From: Escherichia coli
GTDB lineage: Bacteria; Pseudomonadota; Gammaproteobacteria; Enterobacterales; Enterobacteriaceae
Length of the DNA: 64,000 nt
Strand: one strand, 5' to 3'
Assembly (NCBI RefSeq): GCF_016026235.1
Contig: NZ_CP065613.1
The notes below the pieces were generated by a model. It had not been told where the DNA came from. It saw only the letters and a list, made by a program, of their open reading frames with translations, and did not search any database. Positions 19,809-21,443 of this stretch are shown piece by piece (the first letter of the stretch is position 1; every line of letters starts with the position of its first letter). The translations under genes and the position numbers were made by a program.

Positions 19809-19894
19809 GCACGAAAAAGGCCGCAGAGTTTCACCCCTGCGGCCTGGTCCGGGCGCAAATTGCCATTACGGCAGCCTGACGCCCGCATGACACG

Positions 19895-20002
19895 TTACTT
19901 CCGCTTGTTCAGCCAGTTCACGATCATACTGGCAAGAATGCCAGCAATGACCGGAGCCGCTAAATCATGCCAGAAGGCCATGCCCAGCTCTGCGAGCGTC
20001 AT
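19895..20002 (-). CDS. ldrD: Ldr-family type I toxin (35 aa), copy 1
   Basis: MTLAELGMAFWHDLAAPVIAGILASMIVNWLNKRK, ATG verified at 20000-20002. Differs by one residue from the K-12 LdrD I recall. The 80-aa ORF-track entry is an upstream in-frame extension. Confidence 0.8.
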   Translation of the reverse strand: MTLAELGMAFWHDLAAPVIAGILASMIVNWLNKRK

Positions 20003-20047
20003 ATAGCCGCCTGTGTTGTAATGACAACGTTTCGCGGCTATTCTTGA

Positions 20048-20114
20048 ATGGTCTAGATGCAAGAATGGCCCCCGTGATGTTGTCAGGTGCATACCTGCAA
20101 CGTGCGGGGGTTTT
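20048..20114 (+). ncRNA. rdlD: Putative Rdl antisense RNA (antitoxin), copy 1; boundaries approximate
   Basis: Plus-strand hairpin (GCCCCCG ... CGGGGG at about 20068-20110) followed by TTTTCTCTC, about 46 bp upstream of and opposite to the ldr start. Placement is inferred from the known ldr/rdl arrangement; the 5' end was not determined. Confidence 0.4.
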
Positions 20115-20377
20115 CTCTCTCCAGCAACCAATGCCACCAGGGATTAAGCCCCCGCAACATTGCGCCTCACCGGAATCCTTCCGGCTTATCGCTGATTCTA
20201 CGACTGTTTTTCTGTTCCGGAATCCGTCACGTCTTCACTCTGTGCTGCGCATTCCGCAGAATATTATCCGCTTGCAACCGTTGCATTTTTCTTACGAAAA
20301 AGGCCGCAGAGTTTCACCCCTGCGGCCTAGTCCGGGCACAAATTGCCATTACGGCAGCCTGACGCCCGCATGGCACG

Positions 20378-20485
20378 TTACTTCCGCTTATTCAGCCAGT
20401 TCACGATCATACTGGCAAGAATACCAGCAATGACCGGAGCCGCTAAATCATGCCAGAAGGCCATGCCCAGTTCTGCGAGCGTCAT
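20378..20485 (-). CDS. Ldr-family type I toxin (35 aa), copy 2
   Basis: Peptide identical to copy 1, offset by 483 bp. Confidence 0.8.
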   Translation of the reverse strand: MTLAELGMAFWHDLAAPVIAGILASMIVNWLNKRK

Positions 20486-20530
20486 ATAGCCGCCTGAGTT
20501 GTAATGACAACGTTTCGCGGCTATTCTTGT

Positions 20531-20597
20531 ATTGTTTGGATGCAAGAATGGCCCCCGTGGTGTTGTCAGGTGCATACCTGCAACGTGCGGGGGTTTT
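20531..20597 (+). ncRNA. Putative Rdl antisense RNA, copy 2; boundaries approximate
   Basis: Same conserved hairpin and T-run as copy 1; the 5' portion differs from copies 1 and 3. Confidence 0.4.
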
Positions 20598-20860
20598 CTC
20601 TCTCCAGCAACCAATGCCACCAGGGATTAAGCCCCCGCAACATTGCGCCTCACCGGAATCCTTCCGGCTTGACGCTGATTCTACGACTGTTTTTCTGTTC
20701 CGGAATCCGTCACGTCTTCACTCTGTGCTGCGCATTCCGCAGAATATTATCCGCTTGCAATCGTTGCATTTTTCTTACGAAAAAGGCCGCAGAGTTTCAC
20801 CCCTGCGGCCTGGTCCGGGCGCAAATTGCCATTACGGCAGCCTGACGCCCGCATGACACG

Positions 20861-20968
20861 TTACTTCCGCTTGTTCAGCCAGTTCACGATCATACTGGCA
20901 AGAATGCCAGCAATGACCGGAGCCGCTAAATCATGCCAGAAGGCCATGCCCAGTTCTGCGAGCGTCAT
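20861..20968 (-). CDS. Ldr-family type I toxin (35 aa), copy 3
   Basis: Peptide identical to copies 1 and 2, offset by 966 bp from copy 1. Confidence 0.8.
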   Translation of the reverse strand: MTLAELGMAFWHDLAAPVIAGILASMIVNWLNKRK

Positions 20969-21013
20969 ATAGCCGCCTGTGTTGTAATGACAACGTTTCG
21001 CGGCTATTCTTGA

Positions 21014-21080
21014 GTGGTCTAGGTTCAAGATTAGCCCCCGTGGTGTTGTCAGGTGCATACCTGCAACGTGCGGGGGTTTT
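21014..21080 (+). ncRNA. Putative Rdl antisense RNA, copy 3; boundaries approximate
   Basis: Same conserved hairpin and T-run (CGTGCGGGGG at 21067-21076); variant 5' portion. Confidence 0.4.
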
Positions 21081-21443
21081 CTCTCTCCAGCAACCAATGC
21101 CACCAGGGATTAAGCCCCCGCAACATTGCGCCTCACCGGAACCCTTCCGGCTTGCCGCTAATTTTACGATTGCTTTTTACTGTCAGCACTCGGCAATCTT
21201 CCTCATTGCGTGATGCCTTCCAGCTTAATTTCTTAATTTGCAATAGTTGCAGTTCATATCCGGGCTGACTCCAGACTGGTAGTGAAATGCGCAATTTTGT
21301 AGAATTGCGCCTCCTCGCGACCTCCCCAGTGAATCTGTTGCCTCATTTTTTACATACTGCGTATTCGACTTCTCCACCTGTTGCGCAAGAGAAACTGGGT
21401 TTATTCATTTTTGCGAGGCCGACTTCTTTCTGGACAGGACTTT

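Follow-up and report, generated by a model that had tools for sequence, protein, structure and literature searches.

The window analysed here, a 64,000-nt stretch of one strand of Escherichia coli contig NZ_CP065613.1 (assembly GCF_016026235.1), carries three head-to-tail units of 483 bp between bcsG and yhjV, each with a minus-strand ldr reading frame and a plus-strand rdl antisense RNA (Table 1). The flanking reading frames, together with the annotation of K-12 and 12 further genomes at the corresponding site, identify it as the LDR-D locus. Tandem Repeats Finder (TRF) reported one array at 19811-21183, with a period of 483, 2.8 copies, 95% matches and zero indels, and a repeat search gave three in-register copies starting at 19811, 20294 and 20777, with 96-98% identity across 300 nt. 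The bcsG frame ends at 19808, hence the array begins two bases past the stop codon. A preliminary description of this DNA, made from the letters alone, had proposed a 483-bp unit repeated three times directly after the bcsG stop, and both repeat programmes and the bcsG translation agree with it. The span it gave, 19809-21165, does hold the three-copy array, but its right end has to be moved, as the homology between units extends to about 21183. The region upstream of ldr in unit 3 (21166-21259, ~90 nt) aligns with the yhjV-side flank of the K-12 locus and not with the inter-unit spacer, whereas units 1 and 2 carry a diverged spacer in place of that flank.

Table 1. Features of the LDR-D array and its flanks (window coordinates).
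Feature	Position	Strand	Evidence or remark
bcsG, left flank of the array	18129..19808	+	Translation; RefSeq annotation of homologous loci
LDR-D-type unit 1 (483 bp)	19811..20293	-	TRF, repeat search, alignment with K-12 LDR-D
Terminator-like site 3' of ldr copy 1	19818..19845	-	Terminator scan; 11-bp stem, then TTTTT
ldr copy 1 (35 codons and stop)	19895..20002	-	ORF list; Pfam PF13940, E=1e-26; ATG at 20002, stop ends at 19895
Weak sok-model match, leader of ldr copy 1	20000-20153	-	Rfam RF01794
Hypervariable stretch, unit 1 (Rdl 5' tail and four preceding bases)	20047..20067	+	Alignment of 37 units
rdl copy 1 (66-nt antisense RNA)	20051..20116	+	Rfam RF01813, 82.9 bits; fold -32.3 kcal/mol, z=-4.5
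LDR-D-type unit 2	20294..20776	-	TRF, repeat search, alignment
Terminator-like site 3' of ldr copy 2	20301..20328	-	Terminator scan
ldr copy 2 (identical peptide)	20378..20485	-	ORF list; ATG at 20485, stop ends at 20378
Weak sok-model match, leader of ldr copy 2	20483-20636	-	Rfam RF01794
Hypervariable stretch, unit 2	20530-20550	+	Alignment of 37 units
rdl copy 2	20534..20599	+	Rfam RF01813, 81.7 bits; fold z=-3.2
LDR-D-type unit 3	20777..21259	-	Alignment; above ~21183, yhjV-side flank common with the single K-12 copy
Terminator-like site 3' of ldr copy 3	20784..20811	-	Terminator scan
ldr copy 3 (identical peptide)	20861..20968	-	ORF list; ATG at 20968, stop ends at 20861
Weak sok-model match, leader of ldr copy 3	20966-21119	-	Rfam RF01794
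Hypervariable stretch, unit 3	21013-21033	+	Alignment of 37 units
rdl copy 3 (most K-12 RdlD-like copy)	21017..21082	+	Rfam RF01813, 89.2 bits; fold z=-4.4
yhjV, right flank of the array	21381..22715	+	ORF list; annotation of homologous loci

The minus-strand reading frames of all three units encode one and the same hydrophobic peptide of 35 residues, MTLAELGMAFWHDLAAPVIAGILASMIVNWLNKRK, as had been noticed at the outset. The Pfam Ldr_toxin model (PF13940) covers residues 1-35 of 35. An NCBIfam HMM scan returned zero matches for this peptide and for the 25-residue product of a leader reading frame described below, and the assignment to the Ldr family is therefore based on the Pfam match, the NCBIfam models being silent on so short a protein. 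The peptide is the common RefSeq protein WP_001295224.1; its K-12 counterpart, WP_000141634.1, differs in a single residue, Phe3 in LdrD of K-12 being Leu3 in the window. At the DNA level, the coding regions of the three units are separated by 1-3 differences, every one of them synonymous.

Full-length matches to the Rfam rdlD model (RF01813), all well above its gathering score of 50, were found on the plus strand of each unit. In all three units, the predicted fold begins with ~11 unpaired nt, continues into a long hairpin and closes with U-rich sequence; its energy ranges from -29.5 to -32.3 kcal/mol, and z relative to shuffled sequences lies between -3.2 and -4.5. In every unit, the Rdl 5' end lies on the strand opposite to ldr, at a distance of 49 nt upstream from the ATG, as in the MG1655 annotation; the RNA is complementary to the part of the ldr mRNA leader that precedes the start codon by 49-114 nt, and it overlaps neither the ribosome binding site (RBS) nor that codon. 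The conserved plus-strand hairpin-terminator that the preliminary description had placed about 46 bp upstream of ldr corresponds to these RF01813 matches, although the distance has to be corrected to 49 nt, and the reading of the arrangement as that of the Rdl antisense RNA is upheld by the three rdlD matches and by the same spacing in K-12 ldrD/rdlD.

A terminator scan of the array gave six fitting sites, three per strand, compared with ~1.9 sites on shuffled sequences; the plus-strand sites lie at each Rdl 3' end and the minus-strand ones follow the ldr genes. A scan of the array region for consensus sigma-70 promoters returned zero sites. Two short motifs are nevertheless kept in all units and in K-12: a TAGAAT/TAAAAT hexamer upstream of ldr, located on the minus strand at 20200-20195 (unit 1) and 21166-21161 (unit 3), and TTGTAA-17-TATTCT ahead of each Rdl start. 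We infer from this conservation that the ldr and rdl promoters may be located at these hexamers, in which case an ldr mRNA starting from the -10-like hexamer would be ~375 nt long.

With regard to orientation, the 49-nt offset and the terminator-like hairpins, the window units are the same as the ldrD/rdlD unit found at this locus in K-12, and the core of 390 nt in unit 1 is 96.7% identical to K-12 LDR-D. K-12, however, has one unit between bcsG and yhjV where the window has three, and its yhjV-side flank is replaced by the spacer in window units 1 and 2. The LDR-A/B/C group of K-12 (ldrABC/rdlABC) likewise consists of three tandem units with the same internal layout, and its leader block and Rdl promoter region are highly conserved, as they are in the window. 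Nonetheless, these units belong to a different peptide group (the LdrB group of PMC2887945), lie at another locus (kdsA-chaA), are repeated with a period of 535 bp instead of 483 bp, and share only ~81% DNA identity with window unit 1. The K-12 annotation thus agrees with the initial description, namely a single copy at bcsG-yhjV and three tandem copies elsewhere.

To place the three-copy state among other strains, the 2.4-kb interval was compared by megablast with 5,426 complete E. coli genomes, of which 5,425 matched. Copy number was read from the match span in 59 chromosomes sampled at regular intervals along the ranked matches, and the census was repeated, again with 59 chromosomes, using a four-copy locus as the query. 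One copy was present in 23/59 chromosomes in both censuses and two copies in 6/59 in both, while three copies were found in 20/59 in the first and 19/59 in the second. Four copies were counted in 10/59 chromosomes each time, a class that in the first census stands for four or more, as longer arrays were not separable there; the second census contained one chromosome with five or more (1/59). The shares are therefore ~39% for one copy, 10% for two, 32-34% for three and 17% for four, five or more being rare, and the LDR-D copy number in E. coli ranges from one to at least five. Four-copy arrays were confirmed in four annotated loci; three copies occur in an ST131 strain, two in CFT073, and one both in an O157-like strain and in EDL933. 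In RefSeq, three Ldr-family toxin coding sequences are annotated at this locus in FDAARGOS_943, the ST131 strain and others, under the name "type I toxin-antitoxin system toxin Ldr family protein". The comparison with the LDR arrays of other E. coli genomes, which had been proposed as a check, thus shows a common state, and the implied unusualness of the array does not hold: roughly every third complete E. coli genome has three copies, and these are already annotated. Among the papers searched, none gave a per-locus census of ldr; a BLASTn census from 2024 covers tis, sho and zor, not ldr.

An exact 20-mer scan of species-representative genomes, a weak guide to Salmonella or Shigella, returned 8 loci only. 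E. whittamii has one unit at the same locus, and Escherichia sp. E1V33 and another representative labelled E. coli have two units there, 483-484 bp apart. Two of the 8 loci were chance matches in Bacteroidetes MAGs and were discarded. LDR-D sequence 95-96% identical to the window was also seen in NZ_JABWSY010000055.1, a contig of 503 bp with a coverage of 0.66 from a 'Bacillus sp.' assembly, which is probably E. coli contamination. Separately, NZ_CM135829.1 (4.83 Mb), labelled 'DH5alpha', contains three LDR-D units compared with one in K-12 derivatives, and its label looks doubtful.

Taken together, these data show that the array is real, that elements of its kind were known before, and that its allelic state is common and already annotated. 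We regard the region as a natural three-unit tandem ldrD/rdlD array of the LDR-D group at bcsG-yhjV, the units of which are old, diverged paralogues, and assign to this reading a probability of roughly 0.93. Compared in pairs, the window units show 11, 14 and 18 differences across a core of about 385 positions, whereas each of them is only 3-6 differences away from some unit of another, unrelated strain: unit 1 is nearest to unit 3 of ST131, unit 2 to unit 3 of Tig228, and unit 3 to the single unit of 08-3918. A neighbour-joining tree built from 37 units of 13 genomes grouped them neither by strain nor strictly by position; the single K-12 unit, for instance, formed a tight cluster with the first unit of one four-copy array and the third unit of an array of three. 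Because the tree ignores both strain and strict position, the paralogues have probably been redistributed by unequal crossing-over.

Such distances are hard to reconcile with a recent, strain-specific amplification of a single K-12-like copy. The identical peptides of the three units, and the single-copy state of K-12 and of about 39% of genomes, would agree with it; yet units made recently from one another should not be further apart within the array than from units of unrelated strains, the window units fall into three separate clades common to ST131, O157-like and other strains, and two-unit arrays with a period of 483-484 bp exist in other Escherichia species. We consider this origin very improbable. 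Just as little weight can be given to an assembly artefact, be it an expansion from one or two copies or the collapse of a larger array, about which the preliminary description had been concerned. Misassembly of near-identical tandem repeats is well known, and among complete genomes none is 100% identical to the window here, the best reaching 99.8%. Nevertheless, all 14 of the 14 best-matching independent complete assemblies (98.6-99.8% identical, the closest at 99.4-99.8%) carry three units in one collinear piece. The array is moreover just 1.45 kb long, three copies are a common state, and reads can be placed within it, since 11-18 positions separate any two units and no two share the same Rdl 5' tail. 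The concern is accordingly unsupported.

A different question is whether all three units work. Only unit 3, proximal to yhjV, could be functional, with units 1 and 2 silent or differently regulated, given that the latter are preceded by spacer sequence and not by the promoter region native to ldrD: in alignment columns 1-90, upstream of the -10-like hexamer, they are strongly unlike unit 3 and K-12, and the consensus promoter scan was without any site. On the other hand, 3/3 units retain an intact reading frame, Rdl model match and -10-like hexamer, along with the terminator-like sites of both transcripts. The leader at 20111-20140 is invariant in 37/37 units from 13 genomes; this invariance, together with the exclusively synonymous coding differences, argues for purifying selection on all units, the inner ones included. 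A restriction of function to unit 3 therefore appears improbable, although less so than the two origins discussed above. The inner units could still be expressed differently, because upstream of the presumed ldr -10 hexamer their sequence is unlike the one in unit 3 and K-12.

As to how the units would operate, the evidence comes from K-12, in which overproduced LdrD is toxic and its effect is counteracted by RdlD (Kawano 2002, cited in PMC4147584). Reviews list membrane effects and a drop in ATP for LdrA, nucleoid condensation for LdrD, and growth arrest for both. If the K-12 literature applies to the window, Rdl would pair with the ldr leader and prevent translation of Ldr, which would be toxic in excess. 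Rdl leaves the RBS uncovered, and the proposal is that it blocks ldrX, a reading frame in the leader with which the translation of ldr is coupled (PMC4147584, PMC8167048); in K-12 itself, this mechanism is a proposal that is still unconfirmed (PMC4147584, PMC8167048, PMC8309996). Repression in the array would likewise probably be indirect, with Rdl blocking ldrX as Sok does for mok/hok. Two candidates for ldrX can be recognised in the leader. One is a conserved reading frame of 25 codons running from 20160 down to 20083 on the minus strand. The other begins with an ATG at 20092, inside the Rdl-complementary region and in frame with ldr; the stretch of 30 codons from 20092 down to 20003 (minus strand) is open in 36/37 units though it crosses a hypervariable stretch, and units 2 and 3 have equivalent stretches with this in-frame ATG.

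The hypervariable stretch consists of the Rdl 5' tail and four preceding bases. Among the 37 units from 13 genomes, common polymorphisms occupy 11/21 columns in 20047-20067 compared with 18/366 elsewhere (Fisher's test, p about 1e-8 for a region picked after seeing the data), while the Rdl hairpin and loop are almost invariant and the remainder of the leader is nearly so. Twelve tail types were distinguished in the 37 units. No two of the window's three units have the same type, most arrays contain distinct types, and one type sits at different positions in different strains. The few differences between the copies of K-12 LDR-A/B/C cluster at the same Rdl 5' tail. It is conceivable that the tail and its complement in the leader form a specificity code, so that arrays would be sets of mutually orthogonal pairs shuffled by unequal recombination between positions and strains; were this true, the units of an array would not be redundant. 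We hold this idea to be rather unlikely. The nearly invariant hairpin and loop imply that cross-pairing probably persists, which favours a neutral reading, and a simple lack of constraint on the tail stretch explains the pattern equally well.

Discrimination between neighbouring copies is reported for Sib in PMC2943612 and for Orz in PMC8167048. The ibs/sib and zor/orz systems also occur in tandem in one intergenic region with a strain-variable copy number (PMC2887945, PMC11264685), but their toxin and RNA families differ from ldr/rdl. For ldr-rdl, tandem duplication is described as typical by Fozo et al. 2010 (PMC2887945), who inferred that LdrD and LdrB separated in an ancestor, with duplications and losses in individual lineages afterwards, and counted 2 to 10 members of the Ldr/Fst family per enterobacterial genome. 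The hok/sok (mok) system resembles ldr/rdl in its long toxin mRNA leader and in a divergent cis-antisense RNA that spares the toxin RBS, and coupling to a leader reading frame has been proposed for both (PMC4147584, PMC8167048); its toxins, however, are described as not homologous to Ldr (PMC3874152). The ldr leaders in the window gave weak matches to the Rfam sok model (RF01794), with sub-threshold scores of 27-29 bits (threshold 59; E about 1e-3), which hints at a similarity between the leaders of ldr and hok. A true hok/sok locus, the second type I toxin-antitoxin locus of the window, lies at 48212-48363 on the minus strand (Rfam sok, 124.9 bits). Adjoining this match is a cspA 5' UTR thermoregulator (47502-47929, plus strand, 501 bits).

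The ldr/rdl genes are a textbook chromosomal type I toxin-antitoxin family, and tandem duplication is a recognised trait of theirs. K-12 is nevertheless unrepresentative at bcsG-yhjV, where most E. coli have two to four LDR-D units, and work on the deletion or expression of "ldrD" in strains other than K-12 must reckon with several copies. The Rdl 5' tails distinguish the units, which makes unit-specific probes possible.

Two further observations concern other parts of the window. The bcsG frame contains an in-frame TAG at codon 247 (18867-18869), where the closest genome has TGG (G-to-A at 18868). The exact 61-mer with this TAG occurs in 0/5,426 complete E. coli genomes, and matches with one mismatch occur in 744, so that the codon is either a private nonsense allele or a sequencing error; a real allele would truncate the cellulose phosphoethanolamine transferase. 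Finally, an naRNA4 match (28999-29080, plus strand, 66.9 bits) was found beside tRNA-Pro(CGG) (29173-29249, minus strand).
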